A stretch of 39,813 bases of DNA from Omnitrophica bacterium RIFOXYB12_FULL_50_7 (GTDB lineage Bacteria; Omnitrophota; Omnitrophia; Omnitrophales; Aquincolibacteriaceae): contig MHFU01000026.1 in NCBI GenBank assembly GCA_001804345.1, positions 1-39,813 on the forward strand, written 5' to 3'. Positions 2,733 through 29,654 of the stretch are shown here, piece by piece. The notes under the pieces were generated by a model. That model saw only the letters and a list, made by a program, of their open reading frames with translations, did not search any database and had not been told where the DNA came from. A program made the position numbers and the translations under genes. How positions within the stretch are numbered: the stretch's first letter is position 1; each line of letters starts with the position of its first letter.

Positions 2733-3260
2733 ATGTTCGATAAACTGATCGGGTATTTAGTGACGAGAGCGGGCAAGGAATACTCCGCGAGTTATCGCGC
2801 GGTGGCAACGGTGCTTGGCGCGACGCTTTTTATCGCGGGTTGGCCGGTGCTTGTCTGGGTTTTGGGGCTCGGGGGACAGGGAGCTGTCTTCCCGGATATG
2901 GCTGCGGTCCTTTTGAGCGCTCTTTTTTTTGTGGCCGGTATTCCGTGGGTGGCTTGGGCCGTTCTGTGGCAGCTTTGGAAGGGGAAGGGTACGCCTGTGC
3001 CTGTGGTGCCCACCAAGGAATTCCTGCCCTCGGGTCCTTACCGGTATTGCCGCAACCCTATGATGCTCGGGTTTTTTCTTTATCTGGCGGGTTGGGCCTC
3101 GCTTTTCAACCGGGTGGGTTCCTGGGTCGCAGCCGTCGTCTTGCTGGTCCTTTTGATCCTCGAGATCAAGCTGATCGAGGAAAAGGAGCTTGAAGCGCGC
3201 TTCGGAGAGGCCTACCGCGAGTACAAAAAAAAGACGCCATTTTTCGTCCCAAAATTTTGA
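2733..3260 (+). CDS. Isoprenylcysteine carboxyl / phospholipid methyltransferase (ICMT/PEMT) family membrane protein
   Basis: AGGAGG at 2719-2724 precedes ATG 2733. Multi-TM protein. Motif YRYCRNPMMLG and C-terminal EEKELEARFGEAYREYKKKTPFFVP are typical of the family. The ORF-track start at 2577 overlaps the small ORF and is unlikely. Confidence 0.75.
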   Translation: MFDKLIGYLVTRAGKEYSASYRAVATVLGATLFIAGWPVLVWVLGLGGQGAVFPDMAAVLLSALFFVAGIPWVAWAVLWQLWKGKGTPVPVVPTKEFLPSGPYRYCRNPMMLGFFLYLAGWASLFNRVGSWVAAVVLLVLLILEIKLIEEKELEARFGEAYREYKKKTPFFVPKF

Positions 3261-3327
3261 CCTTAAGGATTGCTTTCAGAAAAGCAATCTAGAAAAAAAC
3301 AACGGTTTCTGTTTTTCTTGCAATGAG

Positions 3328-7204: not shown

Positions 7205-7651
7205 GTGACCAGAAAAAAAAGAAGGATTTTTACTCTCCAGGAAGCCGACGCTTTATTGCCGGAGCTTGAAAAACGCCTGAAACTTCTCCGGACCAAAAAA
7301 GAGGCCTACAGCCGTACCCACGATCTTCTTTTCATGCATGAGCTTGTTTGCACGGCCGAGCGAACGAACGGAGTCTTGGAAGAGAAAGATGATCTGGAGG
7401 ACGGTATTCACGCGCTCGAAGGAGCAATCGAAGACCTGGCCAAAGATGTTGAAACGATCTTTGCGATGGGCTGCCTTCTTCGGAACATCGAAAAGGGCCG
7501 CGTCGAATTCTTCGGCAAGCATGAGGGCCGGGAGGTTTATTTTTCCTGGCAACTTGGCGAACCCCACATTTCTCATTACCGCCCGTTTGAGGGGAAAGTC
7601 CATGAACGCGTTCCTCTGTCCGGGAAGCCCGCAACGAAAAGCCAGAAGTAA
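7205..7651 (+). CDS. DUF2203 family protein
   Basis: GTG start 9 nt after AAGGAG. The N-terminus RIFTLQEADALLPELEKRL is typical of DUF2203. Confidence 0.7.
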   Translation: MTRKKRRIFTLQEADALLPELEKRLKLLRTKKEAYSRTHDLLFMHELVCTAERTNGVLEEKDDLEDGIHALEGAIEDLAKDVETIFAMGCLLRNIEKGRVEFFGKHEGREVYFSWQLGEPHISHYRPFEGKVHERVPLSGKPATKSQK

Positions 7652-18961: not shown

Positions 18962-20284
18962 CTATGGTTTTCCCATTTCCAGCGAAGCGTCTACGGAAGG
19001 GTCGAGGGTGGTTTGAGCGTCTAATGCGGAAGATGAGGCGGACGGAGGTTTATCATCTATGGCGAGATCTGCATCCGCGCTATCAAGCGTGGCTGTCTTA
19101 GTTGAAGTTTTCGCTGGTATGTCCTGAGGGCTTTCTGGCGCTGATTTCACTTCCGGCGAAGGTTTTGGTGAAGCGGCTTTTTCCGGAACTTTATTTTTTA
19201 TAGCTGGAGGATGTTCCGCCTCGTAGGGCAGGTTTAAACCTGCCCTACGACCAGCGTTCGAGTCCTTTTCAGAATTTGTTGAAGGGGAAACGAATTTTTC
19301 TCCAAGTTTGAGCCGGCGCGTGTTAAATCGCGGGTCTTTTTCATCCAGGAAAACTTCTTTGGTTCCAGGCGGGACTCTCAGGATAAATTCCAGCGGATCG
19401 ATCGTGTCCAGGGCTTTCACCCGGGTGAAAAAAATCGCACTGCCTTTTTGTGTCTCGGGAGACGTGATCGTGATCTTCTTTGGAAAAACAATAGATTTGT
19501 AGGAACCGACTTGACCCCGAAACTCACGAAAATCATAGCGCTGGATCTCCGTGACCGGTTGTTCTTTAGAGTTATAAAAGAGCTCCCCGCGTACATCGCC
19601 CTCAGGTGTCAGGTATAACTTTCTTTCCAAGATTCTTTCGTTGTCATTCCGGCCATAAACGTCCAGGCTTGTGATCGCGGAATTGGTCCGTTCGACCCTG
19701 GTACGACGGGGGTCTACGGCCATCGGCTTGAGCGCCCGGTAAAGATCGCGGGCCTTGAGATGGCTTTCAATGTCCGGAGAATCCTCCAGATCAAAAATGG
19801 ATCCGTGATAGACCGTGTTTTGAGCTGGGAGATAAAGGTCAAAGCGGCGGTCAAGCGTGCGGAACACGAACATTAGCTCCTGCCGGGCGTCCACGCAGGT
19901 GAGGAACATGCGCTCATCGAGACGTTGGTACAAAAGTTCGCCGCCGCACAAGGCGTTTGGGTCGCCGGCTTTTGCGAAAAAGAGAAGTACGTCCGCGCGG
20001 ATTGCAATCCAGCGGTAATGACGAGATTCGATCTTTTGGAGAATACTTTCCAGTTCTGTGTTCGGGGCTGTTTCTGCCCAAACGAAAGAACTGAAACCTA
20101 AAAGGGAGAAGAGGAGGACGGCCCAAAAAATGGAACGCGTCGGGCGGTCCCAATAACTATCAATTGACGCAAAGCGGCACCTGATTCTCTTTAATCTAAA
20201 AACAAAGATAATCAGTGCCGTCCAAGCCACCATGAATAAAAAGAAAAAAAGATTTGGACGGCAATTAAGACCTGGGCGGTCCAT
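18962..20284 (-). CDS. Hypothetical envelope protein with an N-terminal hydrophobic anchor and a Pro/Ser/Ala-rich C-terminal tail
   Basis: 440-aa ORF starting 1 nt after the upstream gene stop, which suggests translational coupling. Hydrophobic segment IFWAVLLFSLLGFSSFVWA. No family recognised with confidence. Confidence 0.6.
   Translation of the reverse strand: MDRPGLNCRPNLFFFLFMVAWTALIIFVFRLKRIRCRFASIDSYWDRPTRSIFWAVLLFSLLGFSSFVWAETAPNTELESILQKIESRHYRWIAIRADVLLFFAKAGDPNALCGGELLYQRLDERMFLTCVDARQELMFVFRTLDRRFDLYLPAQNTVYHGSIFDLEDSPDIESHLKARDLYRALKPMAVDPRRTRVERTNSAITSLDVYGRNDNERILERKLYLTPEGDVRGELFYNSKEQPVTEIQRYDFREFRGQVGSYKSIVFPKKITITSPETQKGSAIFFTRVKALDTIDPLEFILRVPPGTKEVFLDEKDPRFNTRRLKLGEKFVSPSTNSEKDSNAGRRAGLNLPYEAEHPPAIKNKVPEKAASPKPSPEVKSAPESPQDIPAKTSTKTATLDSADADLAIDDKPPSASSSALDAQTTLDPSVDASLEMGKP
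19221..19250. repeat. 30-bp perfect palindrome inside the hypothetical gene
   Basis: TCGTAGGGCAGGTTT|AAACCTGCCCTACGA has no mismatch and no spacer. It encodes GRRAGLNLPYE in the low-complexity tail. Confidence 0.9.
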
Positions 20285-22773: not shown

Positions 22774-22794
22774 ACCAAAAACCGGGGACCGGCT

Positions 22795-22878
22795 AACGGG
22801 GAACGCTGAACGTCTGCCTGTCGGTAGGAAGATAAAAACTCTTCGTTTCCCGTTCCCCGTTTCCCGAGGGGTTTTTTT
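22795..22878 (+). terminator. GGGGAACG-family long hairpin followed by T7; likely terminator
   Basis: AACGGGGAACGCTGAACG (22795-22812) pairs with CGTTTCCCGTTCCCCGTT (22844-22861): 11 bp perfect, 2 mismatches, 1 G-U wobble, then 4 bp. TTTTTTT at 22872-22878. Confidence 0.65.
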
Positions 22879-24323: not shown

Positions 24324-25721
24324 ATGCGTTCGTATCTCGAAACCTTCCATTCCTCCAAAACTCCCTGGGAGGTTTTTCAAGCAGTCCACGCAAGCTCCCC
24401 GGCTTGTTTTTTCCTGGATTCCCCCCAGTACGCTCCCCCGGATCAAGTTTACTCTTACATTGGGATGGATCCTGAGATAGAAGTTTCTCTTGAGAAGGGC
24501 CGGTTGACCATTTCCGGTGAAGAGAAGGGGAATTATCCCGCTGCCCAACTTTTCCCGCAGTTACGCCGGCTTTTGAAACAAAAAGGGGACAGGCATCTTT
24601 TAAAGAACAAAAGGAGCCAGTCCCAAGCTCCATTCTTTACTGGGGGGCTTGTCGGATATCTTGGGTATGAAACGGCGTCTCTTTGCGACAAAGTAAGTTT
24701 CCGTCCTAAAAAAGAACTTGGAATCCTGGAGGCGTACTTCGGTCTTTTCCGAAATGTGATCGTTTATGACCATAAAGAGCGGATTTATTACTTAGCAATA
24801 AATCCGCGGGACTCGTCCCTCGGGACTCGAGACTCGCAAAAACTAAAATCCTGTTTCGAAAAGTCCATGAAAGCAGAGCCACGTTTCCATCTTAAAAAGA
24901 TTGAGCCGGAAATATCGCGCGGGCATTTTGAAAAAATAGTAAGACGCGCGAAGGAATATATCGCAGCCGGAGATATCTACCAGGCAAATCTGTCCCAGCG
25001 GTTCAATTTCGGATTCCGGGGCTCCGCGCTTGCGCTTTACGACAGGCTCCGCTCAATTAACCCCTCTCCGTTCTCTTCTTTTTTCAAGATCCGGGACCTT
25101 CAGCTCGTGAGCTCATCTCCAGAACGGTTGATCCGTAAGATCGGGAATCTTTGTGAAACGCGGCCGATTGCAGGTACCTGCCCTGCGTATGGGCCTGAGA
25201 AAAAACTTCAGGAGTGGAAGAAAAAGCTTCTCCAGAATCCCAAGGAACGCGCGGAGCACCTCATGCTGGTAGACCTTGAGCGGAACGATCTCGGGCGGGT
25301 TTGTGATTTCCGCTCGGTCAAGGTCGACGAATTCATGACGCTTGAAAAATATTCTTATGTGGTTCACATTGTTTCCAAGATCGTGGGGCGGCTTAAAAAA
25401 GGGAAAGATTGTTTTGACCTGATCAAGGCAATGTTCCCGGGCGGGACGATTACGGGGTGTCCCAAGATCCGTTGTATGGAGATCATTGATGAGCTCGAGC
25501 CTGTGCGGCGCGGTATTTATACCGGTTCCCTTGGCTACATCGATTTGCGCGGTGATATGGACTTGAACATCGTGATCCGGACAATCGTTTTGAAGAACGG
25601 AAGGGGACATCTTCAGGTGGGCGCGGGGATTGTGTATGATTCGGATCCTAAAAAAGAGTATGAAGAGACATTGCATAAGGCTGAGGCGTTGATGAGAGCG
25701 TTAACAGAAGCGTCAGCATGA
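24324..25721 (+). CDS. pabB: Aminodeoxychorismate synthase component I (chorismate-binding TrpE/PabB family)
   Basis: Chorismate-binding motifs FFTGGLVGYLGYE, SSSPERL, FPGGTITGCPKIRCMEII and GIYTGSLGY. The neighbouring class-IV lyase gene favours PabB over TrpE. Confidence 0.8.
   Translation: MRSYLETFHSSKTPWEVFQAVHASSPACFFLDSPQYAPPDQVYSYIGMDPEIEVSLEKGRLTISGEEKGNYPAAQLFPQLRRLLKQKGDRHLLKNKRSQSQAPFFTGGLVGYLGYETASLCDKVSFRPKKELGILEAYFGLFRNVIVYDHKERIYYLAINPRDSSLGTRDSQKLKSCFEKSMKAEPRFHLKKIEPEISRGHFEKIVRRAKEYIAAGDIYQANLSQRFNFGFRGSALALYDRLRSINPSPFSSFFKIRDLQLVSSSPERLIRKIGNLCETRPIAGTCPAYGPEKKLQEWKKKLLQNPKERAEHLMLVDLERNDLGRVCDFRSVKVDEFMTLEKYSYVVHIVSKIVGRLKKGKDCFDLIKAMFPGGTITGCPKIRCMEIIDELEPVRRGIYTGSLGYIDLRGDMDLNIVIRTIVLKNGRGHLQVGAGIVYDSDPKKEYEETLHKAEALMRALTEASA
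24581..24626 (+). repeat. Decayed GGGGACAGGC hairpin copy inside pabB
   Basis: GGGACAGGC (24586-24594) pairs with GCCAGTCCC (24616-24624) with 1 mismatch. It is read in the same frame (K-G-D-R) as the folC copy. Confidence 0.55.
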
Positions 25722-25787: not shown

Positions 25788-26675
25788 ATGAGTTATGCAA
25801 TTTATCAGAACGGTAAAAAAGTTAGCGGGGAACTTCCGTTCGATCTTGTGCGAACGGAGGCCATCGGCATTTTCGAAAGTATGCGCGCCTATCGCGGGCA
25901 GATTCTTCATGAAGAGGAGCATCTCTCCAGGTTTTTGGAGTCGGCGAAGACCGTGGGATACAAACCTTTCCCAAAATTGGCGAGGCTCCAGTGGGAGCTA
26001 AAGTTAGCGCTCAGGGATTTTGGTGAAAAAGAATGTTTTGTCCGCTTGACCTTGTGGGAAGGCCATTCCTTTTTGATCCTGGGTTCCCGGGAACATTCGA
26101 AAGAGCTTTATGAGAAGGGCGTGGTGCTTAAAACGGCCTCTTTTCCTCGCGGGGGACCGAACACTTTCCCCTGGCAAGTTAAAGCTTCAGCCTACCAGCA
26201 GGCGATATTGGCCAGCACGGAGCCCCATCCGGACAAGATCTATGAGTGGGTGTTTCTGGATCCGAGAGGATTTCTCACCGAAACACGCGTCGGAAATTTT
26301 TTTATCGTGAAATGCCCCTGTCCACACCGGGTGTGTCACCCTGGACACACCCGGTGTGGACAGGGTGAGGAACCAACGCTACTGACGCCGCCGGAGCACC
26401 TAATCTTGAATGGAGTGACCCGGAGGTTTGTGATAAAATGCGCCTCCGAAATCGGGATCAAGGTTCGAGAAACCCCGTTGATCCGGCATGAATTTTTCAA
26501 CGCGGATGAAGCTTTTCTTTGCAATACTTCCTGGGAAATCCTGCCGGTCCGTGAACTGGATGGTCGCTTTATCGGTGCGGGAAAACCCGGTCCCATTACT
26601 TTAAAACTGCACCGCTATTTTAAAAGGAGGGTTCAACAAGATGTCACGTCACACCGTTCGTCGCGCGCTTATTAG
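25788..26675 (+). CDS. pabC: Class IV aminotransferase-fold protein, aminodeoxychorismate lyase-like
   Basis: Family blocks FESMRAY, GNFFIVK, LNGVTRR and ADEAFLCNTSWEILPV. Adjacent to pabB. ATG 25788 is preferred over GTG 25770. Carries a 17-codon palindromic insert. Confidence 0.75.
   Translation: MSYAIYQNGKKVSGELPFDLVRTEAIGIFESMRAYRGQILHEEEHLSRFLESAKTVGYKPFPKLARLQWELKLALRDFGEKECFVRLTLWEGHSFLILGSREHSKELYEKGVVLKTASFPRGGPNTFPWQVKASAYQQAILASTEPHPDKIYEWVFLDPRGFLTETRVGNFFIVKCPCPHRVCHPGHTRCGQGEEPTLLTPPEHLILNGVTRRFVIKCASEIGIKVRETPLIRHEFFNADEAFLCNTSWEILPVRELDGRFIGAGKPGPITLKLHRYFKRRVQQDVTSHRSSRAY
26316..26365. repeat. Perfect 22-bp-arm inverted repeat (6-nt spacer) inside pabC
   Basis: CCCTGTCCACACCGGGTGTGTC (26316-26337), spacer ACCCTG, GACACACCCGGTGTGGACAGGG (26344-26365). 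No mismatches. Confidence 0.92.
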
Positions 26676-28218
26676 CGTTTCTGATAAAACAGGCCTTATT
26701 CCTTTCGCCAAAACGCTACACAAGCACGGTGTGGAAATTCTCTCCACCGGAGGTACTTTAAAAGCCCTCAAGCAGGCTGTAGTCCCTGCAATGGCGGTAG
26801 AGGATTACACAGGATTTCCCGAGATGCTGGACGGCCGGGTGAAGACCCTTCATCCGAAGATCCATGGCGGCCTTCTTTTTCTCCGTCACAAGAAAAGCCA
26901 TCAAAAACAGGTCAAGGCGCATGGCATTAAACCCATCGACCTTGTGGTCGTGAATCTCTATCCTTTTGAGGAAGCGACAAGCAAAGGAAATCTAAGCATG
27001 GACGATGCCAAAGAGTTCATTGATATCGGGGGCCCTTCGATGCTCCGTTCCGCGGCGAAGAATTATCAATCGGTGACCGTGATCACAGACGTTCAGGATT
27101 ATGATCGCGTTGCCCAAGAGCTCGACGAGCATAGAGGAAGCGTAACCGATGAAACGCGTTTCGCGCTTTCCCAAAAGGTTTTCGAGAAAACCTCCGCCTA
27201 CGATGCCGTGATCAGTCAATTCATGGCCATGCACAAGAAAAAAACAGGGGAAGAATCCGCGCTGCCGCCGCAATTCGTTTTCCATTTTAAAAAGGCCCAG
27301 GATCTCCGGTACGGCGAGAACCCGCATCAAAAGGCTGCCTTTTATATCCCAACGACCCACAAGGCCTCGGCTTCCTGGACCCAGCTCCATGGTAAAGAGC
27401 TTTCTTTTAACAATCTTATGGATGTCGACGCAACGCTGGATGTCCTTGCCGAATTCAATGCGCCGGCGGCTTGTGTGGTCAAACACAACAATCCCTGTGG
27501 CATTGCTCAGGACACGCAGGCCCTTGTTGCGGTCGACAAAGCGATCGATGGCGATATTCTGTCAGCCTTTGGCGGGATCGTGGGCGTCAACCGCTGCTGT
27601 GACCGCAAGATCGCGGAAAAAGTCCTCGAGAAGCTCGCGTTCTTTGAAGTGCTGGTGGCGCCATCTTTCAAGCCGGGAGCGCTGAAACTTCTTAAGTCCC
27701 GGAAGAATCTCCGGTTGATCGAGGTTCATCAGTTTCGTGATGAGAATCTCTACGACGTGAAATTCCTTCGCGCAGGGATCCTGGTTCAGGAAAAGAATCG
27801 TCCCATCAAGGATCACATGGCGGAACTGAAAAAGAAACTCAACTTTGTCACGAAGGCCAAGCTTTCCGAAGCGGAGACCGAGGAGTTGATTTTTGCGTTC
27901 CAATGTTCCAAGGTTGTGAAATCGAACGCTATTGTGCTGACCCAGGGGAAGCACACGGTCGGGATCGGGGCGGGGCAGATGTCACGCGTGGATTCGGTAC
28001 AGATCGCGATGCAGAAGGCGGGTTATCTGGCCGAAGGTGCAATGCTTGGCAGTGACGCTTTTTTCCCCATGCCGGATTCCATCGAAATGGCGGCCAAGCA
28101 CAAGATCAAGGCCATCATTCAGCCCGGTGGTTCGATCCGCGATGCGGACGTGATCGCGGCTTGCGATCAAGCCGGCTTGGCGATGGCCTTTATCGGCGAG
28201 CGGCATTTTAAACACTAA
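26641..28218 (+). CDS. purH: Bifunctional AICAR formyltransferase / IMP cyclohydrolase PurH
   Basis: N-terminal RALISVSDKTGL, then GRVKTLHPKIHGG and LRYGENPHQ. 525 aa. Overlaps the pabC 3' end by 35 nt. Confidence 0.95.
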   Translation: MSRHTVRRALISVSDKTGLIPFAKTLHKHGVEILSTGGTLKALKQAVVPAMAVEDYTGFPEMLDGRVKTLHPKIHGGLLFLRHKKSHQKQVKAHGIKPIDLVVVNLYPFEEATSKGNLSMDDAKEFIDIGGPSMLRSAAKNYQSVTVITDVQDYDRVAQELDEHRGSVTDETRFALSQKVFEKTSAYDAVISQFMAMHKKKTGEESALPPQFVFHFKKAQDLRYGENPHQKAAFYIPTTHKASASWTQLHGKELSFNNLMDVDATLDVLAEFNAPAACVVKHNNPCGIAQDTQALVAVDKAIDGDILSAFGGIVGVNRCCDRKIAEKVLEKLAFFEVLVAPSFKPGALKLLKSRKNLRLIEVHQFRDENLYDVKFLRAGILVQEKNRPIKDHMAELKKKLNFVTKAKLSEAETEELIFAFQCSKVVKSNAIVLTQGKHTVGIGAGQMSRVDSVQIAMQKAGYLAEGAMLGSDAFFPMPDSIEMAAKHKIKAIIQPGGSIRDADVIAACDQAGLAMAFIGERHFKH

Positions 28219-28241
28219 AAGGCGTGGAACGGGTAGCGGCA

Positions 28242-28280
28242 AACGGGGAACGATTCGTTAACCGTTCAGCGTTCCCCGTT
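28242..28280 (+). repeat. GGGGAACG-family hairpin between purH and folC
   Basis: AACGGGGAACG (28242-28252) pairs perfectly with CGTTCCCCGTT (28270-28280). 28263-28280 is the exact reverse complement of 22795-22812. Confidence 0.7.
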
Positions 28281-28290
28281 CCCCGAGCCC

Positions 28291-29601
28291 ATGAACTACT
28301 CCCAAGCCCTTCGCTATTTGAATTCTTTTACCAATCTCGAAAAGCTCGCCCAGTGGCCCCAAAACTCCTTCTTCAATCTTAAACGGATGGAGCATTTGCT
28401 TAAAGCGGCAGGTCATTTGGAGAAGAGTTTTTTCCCCATCTTGATCGCGGGGACCACAGGAAAAGGGTCGACAGGCTTTTTTCTCGAATCTATTCTGAAG
28501 GCCAATGGCATCCGGACGGGTTACTATCACTCCCCGCACGTCGAAGATCCGCGCGAGAGGATCCGGGTTCAGGGAGACATGGTTTCCAAAAGACTTTGGG
28601 CCGAAGGGCTTTCCGCGACGCAAAAACTTCTCCGCCAAAAACCTCTTCCGAAAGCATGGGGCGTTCTGACCTATTTCGAGACCCTGACATTTCTGGCCAT
28701 TTGGATTTTTGTGAAAAGGGGCATCAAAGTCGGCATTTTTGAGATCGGGCTTGGCGGCCGGCTTGATGCGACCAATGTCCTGAAAGCGCCGCTTGTGATC
28801 CTTACGCCCATTCATCTCGACCACGAAGCATTCTTGGGCAACACTATTTCAAAAATAGCTGCTGAAAAAGCCGCGATCATCAAGACGCGAGGACACGCCG
28901 TGATCGGAAAACAATGCCCGGAAGCGCTTCGGGTGATCTGCGGTGCCGTGAAAAGGAATAAGGGAATTTTATGGAAGGCGAAGCCTATCGTCGGGATTTC
29001 GCTCGGGCTTGCCGGGGATTTTCAAAAGAGGAATGCCGGTGTTGTGCTGAAAGCCGCCGAGATCTTGCGGAAGTATTTTAATTTTTCAATAACACCTCAA
29101 CGATCGAAGGAAGGATTGCGATCCCGGAACTGGAAAGGACGCATGGAAAGTTTTTACCGAGGTGGCCGGCGATTTATCCTGGACGGTGCGCATAATCCAA
29201 TCTCGACAACAGAGCTGGTCCGGTCTTTGCGGAAAATGGAACCGGCCGCTCGCAAAGGGGACAGACCCCTTAAAAATTTAGGGGGTCTGTCCCCTTCATG
29301 GCTGGTGTTTGGCGCGATGAATGATAAGAACAGCCGGGAGATGCTCCGGGTGCTGAGCGGATTTTTTTCAAAAATAATCCTGACCGGCATTACGGGAAAT
29401 CGTGCCAAGCCGGTGGCGATGCTTATCGAAGAGGCGAAAGGGCTTTTCAAATGCGTTCTTACGGCCCAGAATGTTGGAGAATCGTTGGAGTTGGCGGGGA
29501 GAGCATCAAACTCCGGAGCTACTATTACGGTGACAGGGTCGTTTTATTTAGTCGGTGAGGCAAGAAAAATCTTAAAAAACCCGGGGAACGGGAAACGGTG
29601 A
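28291..29601 (+). CDS. folC: Folylpolyglutamate synthase / dihydrofolate synthase FolC
   Basis: Mur-ligase P-loop IAGTTGKGST, then EIGLGGRLDATN, LDHEAFLGNT, and LDGAHNP in the C-terminal domain. Confidence 0.88.
   Translation: MNYSQALRYLNSFTNLEKLAQWPQNSFFNLKRMEHLLKAAGHLEKSFFPILIAGTTGKGSTGFFLESILKANGIRTGYYHSPHVEDPRERIRVQGDMVSKRLWAEGLSATQKLLRQKPLPKAWGVLTYFETLTFLAIWIFVKRGIKVGIFEIGLGGRLDATNVLKAPLVILTPIHLDHEAFLGNTISKIAAEKAAIIKTRGHAVIGKQCPEALRVICGAVKRNKGILWKAKPIVGISLGLAGDFQKRNAGVVLKAAEILRKYFNFSITPQRSKEGLRSRNWKGRMESFYRGGRRFILDGAHNPISTTELVRSLRKMEPAARKGDRPLKNLGGLSPSWLVFGAMNDKNSREMLRVLSGFFSKIILTGITGNRAKPVAMLIEEAKGLFKCVLTAQNVGESLELAGRASNSGATITVTGSFYLVGEARKILKNPGNGKR
29255..29296. repeat. Perfect 15-bp-arm inverted repeat inside folC (GGGGACAG family)
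   Basis: AAGGGGACAGACCCC (29255-29269), spacer TTAAAAATTTAG, GGGGTCTGTCCCCTT (29282-29296). 42 nt, which is 14 codons. Confidence 0.9.
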
Positions 29602-29654
29602 ACGGGGAACGGAAAAACGGCTTGCGTTCGGCGTTCCCCTTTCCTCGTTACCCA
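29581..29654 (+). repeat. GGGGAACG-family hairpin spanning the folC stop codon
   Basis: Left arm CCGGGGAACGGGAAACGGTGAACGGGGAACGG contains the folC TGA (29599-29601). GGGGAACG (29604-29611) pairs with CGTTCCCC (29632-29639). Confidence 0.6.

Follow-up and report, generated by a model that had tools for sequence, protein, structure and literature searches.

An in-frame hairpin in a PabC-like gene of Omnitrophota is probably a REP doublet of a RAYT-associated family

Introduction

Repetitive extragenic palindromic (REP) elements, their doublets (REPINs) and the REP-associated tyrosine transposases (RAYTs), represented by TnpA-REP of E. coli (PDB 4ER8), were reportedly described by Nunvar in 2010, Bertels and Rainey in 2011 and Ton-Hoang in 2012. 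REPINs are usually longer than 50 nt. Palindromic elements of another kind, the Rickettsia palindromic elements (RPEs), are said to have been reported by Ogata et al. in 2000. Here we analyze a 50-nt hairpin that interrupts, in frame, a PabC-like gene of Omnitrophica bacterium RIFOXYB12_FULL_50_7 on contig MHFU01000026.1 (assembly GCA_001804345.1); the 39,813 nt (39.8 kb) of that contig are the whole stretch analyzed and are referred to below as the window. With a probability of roughly 0.8, we conclude that the hairpin represents a doublet of REPs, an inverted pair resembling a compact REPIN, which belongs to a REP/RAYT system of this Omnitrophota lineage and is lodged in a permissive β-turn of the enzyme.

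The association of REPs with RAYTs, the existence of REP doublets, and the co-variation of REP class with RAYT are all established (PMC3116915, PMC3686654, PMC5581495). Intragenic REPs are a documented minority, reported for the GTAG and CGTC families by Di Nocera et al. 2013 (PMC3733652); over half of them occur as dimers or in groups and code for 20-30 residues, intragenic REPs reach their highest numbers in Opitutus terrae and Rickettsia conorii, and in one case different REPs occupy about the same site in recB of two Xanthomonas species (PMC3733652). RPEs are the classical in-frame palindromes (PMC10969869). In-frame palindromic inserts that add loops to proteins are already known, and the basic event is not new. 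The original prediction, made from the DNA letters alone, had assumed novelty for a folate gene; intragenic REP dimers had been described (PMC3733652), and the folate gene is incidental. The literature searched holds no mention of REPs in the phylum Omnitrophota.

Results

A Perfect Hairpin in a Class-IV Aminotransferase-Fold Gene

A repeat search of the window returns two arms of 22 nt, at 26316-26337 (CCCTGTCCACACCGGGTGTGTC) and 26344-26365 (GACACACCCGGTGTGGACAGGG), which are 100% complementary and separated by a 6-nt gap, exactly as first noted. Even with up to 3 mismatches allowed, the arm 22-mer matches nothing else in the 39.8 kb, and none of 100 shuffles produced a match. Folded as RNA, the hairpin region reaches -50.4 kcal/mol (z = -7.8, with 0/200 shuffles equally good); folded as DNA, it reaches -30.1 kcal/mol (z = -8.9).

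The hairpin lies in frame in an open reading frame (ORF) of 295 aa (25788..26675, + strand), recorded as OGX14092.1, which has the class-IV aminotransferase fold (Pfam Aminotran_4, PF01063, 3.4e-35). Its place between GNFFIVK and TLLTPP..ILNGVTRR agrees with the original prediction, according to which family members have only 2-4 residues there. Insert-free class-IV enzymes of solved structure have a two-residue turn at the site ('VKNG-AITTPP'), against which the window's protein aligns with 19 additional residues, and insert-free Omnitrophota orthologs have 3 residues where it has 22. By these structure and ortholog alignments, the inserted segment spans 26313..26372 (+), 20 codons (CPCPHRVCHPGHTRCGQGEE), and lengthens the β-turn by about 19 residues net; the 17 codons counted earlier correspond to the palindromic part. 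Despite the insert, the invariant enzyme residues are intact. K132, presumably the catalytic Lys, is invariant in 43 orthologs and corresponds to the Lys in the IKSLNY of homologs with solved structures. An AlphaFold2 model of moderate quality (mean predicted local distance difference test score, pLDDT, of 63), used for loop position only, gives residues 179-193 a pLDDT <50 between strands 169-175 and 197-200. The insert is thus modeled as a low-confidence loop joining two β-strands, probably disordered and at the surface. Its DNA is a multiple of three in length and open in every frame of both strands, except for two edge TGA triplets.

The same hairpin sequence occurs in two further assemblies (L076 and L077), and 10 contigs on record encode the exact 295-aa protein with its insert, annotated as a 'hypothetical protein'; the hairpin is therefore not an assembly artefact. 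Multiple displacement amplification can yield inverted repeats, and the L077 contig has a coverage of only 1.9. A chimera absent from the organism would nevertheless have to arise identically in the window, L076 and L077, at least three assemblies built on different data sets, on the contigs that carry the protein, and in equivalent in-frame form in many independent metagenome-assembled genomes (MAGs), and we give it next to no credence.

The peptide encoded by the insert, CPCPHRVCHPGHTRC, contains 4 Cys and 4 His in 15 residues, which could be read as a metal-binding loop under selection, with the palindrome as a by-product. This reading is hardly tenable. Orthologs with inserts of equal length do not keep the Cys and His (YSSRDRTSVKSETGSLKNIKV, YPAKDPVLKNLKTGSWAGKG), the Cys/His richness results from the CACACC/GGTGTG codons, much as the original prediction had proposed, and the loop is predicted with low confidence. 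Two further candidates were discarded: programmed frameshifting, for which the T-rich run upstream of the stem is unconserved (AACTTTTTCATC in L001, L005, L010 and L013), and an intrinsic terminator, for which there is no T-run after the stem and 0 terminator-like sites in the scan. An Rfam scan of the whole window at gathering thresholds returned no family.

The Hairpin Comprises Two Inverted Units Found at Other Loci

The hairpin can be decomposed into units with a common plan, a 29-nt imperfect palindrome of the form ACCCTG-NN-CACACC-S-GGTGTG-NN-CAGGGT. One complete unit, ACCCTG-GA-CACACC-C-GGTGTG-GA-CAGGGT, occupies 26338..26366 (+); the units beside the RAYTs P0121, P0122, P0123 and P0125 (below) share its plan. 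The hairpin loop, ACCCTG (26338..26343, +), doubles as the 5' outer-stem half of this unit, which then continues through the right arm of the 22-bp hairpin (26344..26365, +), an arm defined by the repeat search and by the RNA and DNA folds. The left arm (26316..26337, +) is the REP core in the opposite orientation, CCCTG-TC-CACACC-G-GGTGTG-TC, in a unit truncated at its 3' outer stem. The left core is centered on G and the right core on C, so that the two units are inverted with respect to one another, and together they make the perfect 22-bp stem.

A scan of the metagenome collection detected the exact 22-mer in only three stretches (L073, L074 and L075), none of them in pabC; L073 and L075 are one contig from two data sets. 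In L074, the match at 248-276 (ACCCTGTCCACACCGGGTGTGTCCAGGGT) lies 3' of a membrane-protein ORF and is the exact reverse complement of window positions 26338-26366, 29/29. On the L073/L075 contig, the exact 22-mer (L075 1077-1098) lies upstream of a 215-aa ORF, P0121, and is accompanied by three more units. All four (L075/L078) fall within ~400 nt of P0121, two upstream and two downstream, with the consensus ACCCTG-TA-CACACC-S-GGTGTG-TA-CAGGGT; the remaining ~18 kb of the contig contains no units. The copies seen are those in pabC, those beside RAYTs and one at the extragenic site in L074. A local template switch, in which the adjacent 22 nt were duplicated in inverted form by snap-back during replication with no mobile family involved, would typically leave perfect arms and a short loop such as these. 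It is already contradicted by the extragenic and RAYT-flanking copies, since units identical to the arms flank a transposase at unrelated loci, and orthologs show the same architecture with other stems; we regard it as very unlikely.

These copies, together with the variable peptide and the loop position, uphold the original idea of a mobile or templated palindrome tolerated within a protein, though as an element of REP/RAYT type rather than the RPE type then suggested. Purine-rich 3' tails were considered as a part of the REP and rejected; at extragenic copies they are the ribosome-binding sites of downstream genes. Neither the degenerate REP nor the hairpin arm of a second insert, in a FolC-like gene (below), has any match in viral contigs. 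A protein search with peptides from all REP frames gave nothing at E <= 10, and is uninformative, given that it also missed the pabC orthologs.

The Units Flank a Putative RAYT

Judged from its sequence, P0121 is a HUH/Y1 transposase of RAYT type. It scores 28.3 bits against Pfam Y1_Tnp (PF01797; gathering cutoff 23), and its sole relative in the PDB is 4ER8, the E. coli TnpA-REP, with alignment through the HUH motif (HVH to HMH) and the YIxxNP tyrosine motif (YIHLNP to YIYINP); the IS608 and ISDra2 TnpA structures give no match at E <= 1. Units, two to four of them per transposase gene, are present on both flanks of the RAYTs P0121, P0122, P0123, P0125 and P0126. Other RAYT lineages have their own stems around CCSGG, on the plan ACCC...stem-CCSGG-stem...GGGT. 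Occasionally, RAYTs are flanked by long hairpins instead of 29-nt units (L101 ~1310-1360 and 2085-2130; L086 ~2395-2440 and 3245-3290); these have two CCSGG centers each, e.g. ACCCCTCTAAAACCGGGTTCTAGAACCCGGTTTTAGAGGGGT and CCCACTCCAACACCGGGACTTAGGCCCGGGTGTTGGAGTGGG, a geometry equal to that of the pabC doublet.

RAYTs that are 54-76% identical have partly common flanking genes, namely a giant protein upstream and/or a DUF1844, LPG synthase, aroQ, accB, accC cluster downstream, and P0121, P0122, P0125 and P0139 hold a conserved chromosomal position. The shared flanks mostly fit a single-copy, vertically inherited RAYT. Unlike these, P0123 and P0147 adjoin other genes. P0123 was found on contigs of <=4.9 kb (L092-L096; L092 81-1889) with varied neighbors, including a DDE transposase and zf_Tbcl_2 proteins; such variety could stem from differences between strains, from additional copies of the gene, or from assemblies that break at REPs.

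P0123 is also linked to the window's organism at the level of samples. It is 75% identical to P0121 and is flanked by ACCCTGTCCACACCCGGTGTGGCCAGGG-type units (REPs ACCCTGTCCACACC...), one of which matches 21/22 bases of the window's left arm. It was recovered from the same BioSample (SAMN03842453) as L076, whose pabC is that of the window, and from the same JGI metagenome (Ga0208863) as L074.

One Site, Many Stems: the Insert across Omnitrophota

The insert is neither private to the window's genome nor a recent one: the same site is filled in about a third of Omnitrophota orthologs, with differing stems and with decayed and shortened forms. Among 119 Omnitrophota orthologs, 36 have +19 residues at the site and 3 have +22, while 23 have +12, 15 have +5 and 11 have no extra residues; the remainder have other lengths. 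The peptide is unconserved (e.g. YPCTHRVCHPVHTRCVQG, TPRKHRVFEKTNTRCLQG, YSSRDRTSVKSETGSLKN). Long inserts nevertheless have flanking inserted residues in common, Y before and xGxxA after, and these are retained in the +12 and +5 forms.

Significant hairpin folds were found in 10/12 long-insert genes whose DNA was examined (z -2.5 to -9.2); the shorter forms gave no significant fold. The long inserts of L022 and L039 are decayed, and they alone encode the insert by non-palindromic DNA, a situation that the original prediction had named as adverse and that does not apply to the window. Nine 25-codon inserts align without gaps, and in this alignment 73.7% of cells are paired in register, compared with 33-47% when the partner strand is slid; covariation is 0.45 against 0.13-0.19, and 15/22 pairs have changed on both sides. 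The dyad falls at the same nucleotide in all nine. The stems themselves vary by species, e.g. CACACCSGGTGTG, CAAACACCSGGTGTTTG, AAAGACCCGGTCTTT and TCCGACCCCGGAGGTCGGA.

These species-specific stems follow the REP variants that flank RAYTs. The pabC gene P0002 (L104), with 79% nucleotide identity to the window gene, carries GCAAACACCGGGTGTTTG-AAAAAA-CAAACACCCGGTGTTTGC at the window's exact codon positions, and its arms (CAAACACCSGGTGTTTG) are the REP that flanks RAYT P0126 (L100), which has four flanking units of the form ACCC(T/C)GCAAACACCSGGTGTTTG.... As a comparison of sequences, we regard this match between the L104 stem and the P0126 REP variant as decisive. Similarly, back-translation of the insert peptide of pabC P0003 points to the 'TA' REP variant, the one found beside P0121 and P0122, and P0003 and P0122 share two samples. 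The intragenic copy seems to change in step with the RAYT-cognate REP.

The pattern raises the question of whether the hairpin is instead a locus-specific structure kept by selection, either as an mRNA stem that controls how the pabB-pabC-purH-folC transcript is translated, degraded or processed, or as a DNA target of a domesticated RAYT. Such a role would suit the strong in-register covariation across species, the persistence of perfect hairpins despite ~21% nucleotide divergence between the window gene and that of L104, the large share of copies that one site represents in low-copy REP families, and the presence of a second hairpin insert in the same operon. That second insert is specific to the window's lineage, however, and many orthologs have lost part or all of the pabC insert in frame (+12, +5, 0) or let it decay (L022, L039). 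The hairpin has no Rfam match and no terminator or promoter signal. Selection on structure alone, moreover, would not keep stems identical to distant REP copies, and a homogenizing process or repeated re-insertion is therefore needed. We consider a purely functional structure improbable.

Repeated insertion would mean that doublets entered a permissive, target-bearing site in pabC separately, each from the REP family of its own genome. The exact match of stems to lineage-specific REP variants is what young insertions should show, and the insert states are scattered on a neighbor-joining (NJ) ordering of the orthologs. Hot spots of this type do exist here, given that a FolC-like gene has unrelated inserts at one shared loop site in four lineages. 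Independent insertion fits poorly with the uniformity of the long inserts, which are equal in length (+19 in 36 orthologs), dyad position and frame, and with the shared flanking residues that persist in the +12 and +5 forms. The REPs beside RAYTs are of several geometries, from 29-nt units to long hairpins of 42-45 nt, and independent inserts should accordingly vary more in length than is seen. Recurrent insertion is a doubtful explanation on this balance, and one origin followed by homogenization is favored because of the equal length, the dyad position and the shared flanking residues.

Gene Context and Other Palindromes in the Operon

A PabB-like, chorismate-binding gene lies upstream of the host gene (24324..25721, +; PF04715 and PF00425 on the identical gene in L076). 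Downstream, purH (26641..28218, +) overlaps the end of the host gene and is followed by a FolC-like gene of the same cluster. The name pabC is reasonable from this context only, with a PabB-like gene on one side and a FolC-like gene on the other. The operon supports the identity given in the original prediction; family models do not settle it, as the PabC NCBIfam models score 36-72 bits on the host protein against cutoffs of 177-308, no equivalog cutoff is reached, and the IlvE models, which give the best NCBIfam scores, are also below their cutoffs.

A second in-frame palindromic insert was found in the FolC-like ORF (28291..29601, +), at 29255-29296: AAGGGGACAGACCCCTTAAA|AA|TTTAGGGGGTCTGTCCCCTT, with 20-nt arms that are 95% complementary and a local fold of -55.7 kcal/mol. 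It encodes ~15 extra residues ('KMEPAARKGDRPLKNLGGLS' in place of the 'AQKVR' of most orthologs), is lineage-specific and is unrelated in sequence to the pabC REP; it has no other copy in the window, in the Omnitrophota loci examined or in viral contigs. At the same site, about 27 aa are added in L010 (~7400-7530; GAATEERRRGNLARYRLLRCARNDEKK), where the coding DNA contains inverted repeats of the TCATTGCGAG...CTCGCAATGAC type; the gain is about 14 aa in L039 and 6 in L008. This loop of the FolC-like protein appears to be a hot spot that receives inserts unrelated to one another.

A third small repeat family consists of AACGGGG-heptad hairpins at 22790-22866, 28237-28285 and 29587-29642 (e.g. 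CGGCAAACGGGGAACG...CGTTCCCCGTTCCCCG). They lie between long ORFs, one of them just after the purH stop and another overlapping the last codons of the FolC-like ORF. At <=1 mismatch, AACGGGGAACG has 9 matches in the window where 1.1 are expected, and 0/100 shuffles reach 9. Elsewhere, a perfect 30-nt palindrome, TCGTAGGGCAGGTTTAAACCTGCCCTACGA, lies at 19221-19250 inside a 440-aa ORF (18962..20284, -), where it contributes to the peptide ...NAGRRAGLNLPYEAE....

Discussion

The likeness of this system to described REP/REPIN-RAYT systems extends to most of its parts: a short, G+C-rich imperfect palindrome; copies on both flanks of a gene for a HUH/Y1 transposase; an inverted doublet that forms a long hairpin; REP variants that go with RAYT lineages; and a RAYT at a conserved chromosomal position with apparently vertical inheritance. 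It differs in that the window's copy is intragenic and translated, whereas other copies of the family are extragenic, in that the doublet, with its truncated left unit and its loop of 6 nt, takes up a very compact 50 nt, in that the units have ACCC...GGGT ends and a CCSGG center with no GTAG tag, and in that the family is apparently low-copy. Among the intragenic REPs of Di Nocera et al. there are likewise in-frame units, especially dimers, in genes for known proteins, presumed neutral in loops. The Omnitrophota family is untagged, one site is filled across dozens of species, and the stems show compensatory changes that follow RAYT-specific variants, alongside a series of in-frame deletions. 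RPEs share the in-frame location in metabolic genes and the tolerance in surface regions of the protein, but RPE-1 type elements are ~100-150 bp, encode a conserved peptide, have no dedicated transposase known and are confined to Rickettsia; the window's unit (29 nt; doublet 50 nt) is RAYT-associated and its peptide is unconserved, so that size and peptide set the two apart. The IS200/IS605 elements (IS608, ISDra2) are mobilized by HUH/Tyr enzymes that recognize hairpins on single-stranded DNA, presumably the same chemistry. The window's hairpins, in contrast, bound no self-copying element that carries its transposase, and the transposase appears single-copy, which is not established for P0123.

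Several observations weigh against a REP doublet of a RAYT system and account for our reserve. The best NCBIfam model for P0121, REP_Tyr_transpos (REP-associated tyrosine transposase), gives 64 bits, short of its curated cutoff of 80. A GTAG/CTAC or CGTC/GACG tag adjoins none of the units; the ends conserved across RAYT lineages are ACCC...GGGT. Neither a RAYT nor a second REP copy is present in the window's own 39.8 kb, and no further copy turned up in 20 kb surrounding the RAYT or in 458 kb of related loci. When those 458 kb, comprising 52 Omnitrophota pabC neighborhoods, were scanned under relaxed criteria for units of the REP plan, the window's own unit was the only one returned, and blastn-short searches with 12 pabC hairpins detected no second copy in the window or in ~600 kb of loci. 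The repetitive nature of the REP family is therefore weakly shown, and its copy number appears low. The link between the window and P0123 is one of co-occurrence in samples, not on one contig, and is not proof of a shared genome. On contig JAKJDL010000001.1, where the RAYT (L086) has a long hairpin REP, the pabC insert (L039) is decayed and unrelated to it. The NJ ordering of 120 orthologs (72-78% identity) is too star-like to choose between a single and a repeated origin. The sequences directly show the anatomy of the doublet, its identity with extragenic and RAYT-flanking REPs, the common site and the covariation; RAYT-driven transposition or homogenization is an inference.

Taking the REP doublet as our working explanation, we envisage that it entered the β-turn in the ancestor of a large Omnitrophota clade by single-strand DNA transposition of RAYT type. 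Hairpins would form on single-stranded DNA at replication forks, where a HUH/Tyr enzyme could cut and rejoin them. The doublet would have been inherited since, with decay or stepwise in-frame partial deletion in some lineages giving rise to the +12, +8 and +5 forms. In lineages that retain a matching RAYT, the intragenic copy would be kept complementary and matched to the lineage's own REP variant, likely through replacement or gene conversion from other REP copies, i.e. by concerted evolution. For the cell, the doublet would most likely be a tolerated passenger, and in the mRNA it would present the ribosome with a very stable stem to unwind. A stronger form of this proposal, which we offer tentatively as possible, is that the doublet is a long-lived copy actively matched to the RAYT-cognate REP of its lineage, via RAYT-mediated replacement or gene conversion at a fixed site. 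If so, an in-frame site in a needed gene would protect the doublet from imprecise deletion, and the doublet could act as a refuge or master copy for REPs whose population has very few copies, or as a functional target of the RAYT within the folate operon.

The insert explains why the host gene is annotated only as a hypothetical protein. More broadly, these data add a phylum to those with RAYT-associated REPs, and the architecture there is of a non-GTAG kind (ACCC...CCSGG...GGGT). They also provide a natural series, a single orthologous site that can be compared among dozens of uncultured Omnitrophota species and at which the hairpin is perfect, altered by compensatory changes, decayed, partly deleted or absent. 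With the cognate transposase and the flanking REP variants identifiable alongside the site, the co-evolution of REPs and RAYTs, and the homogenization or replacement of REP copies, become testable on sequence data.

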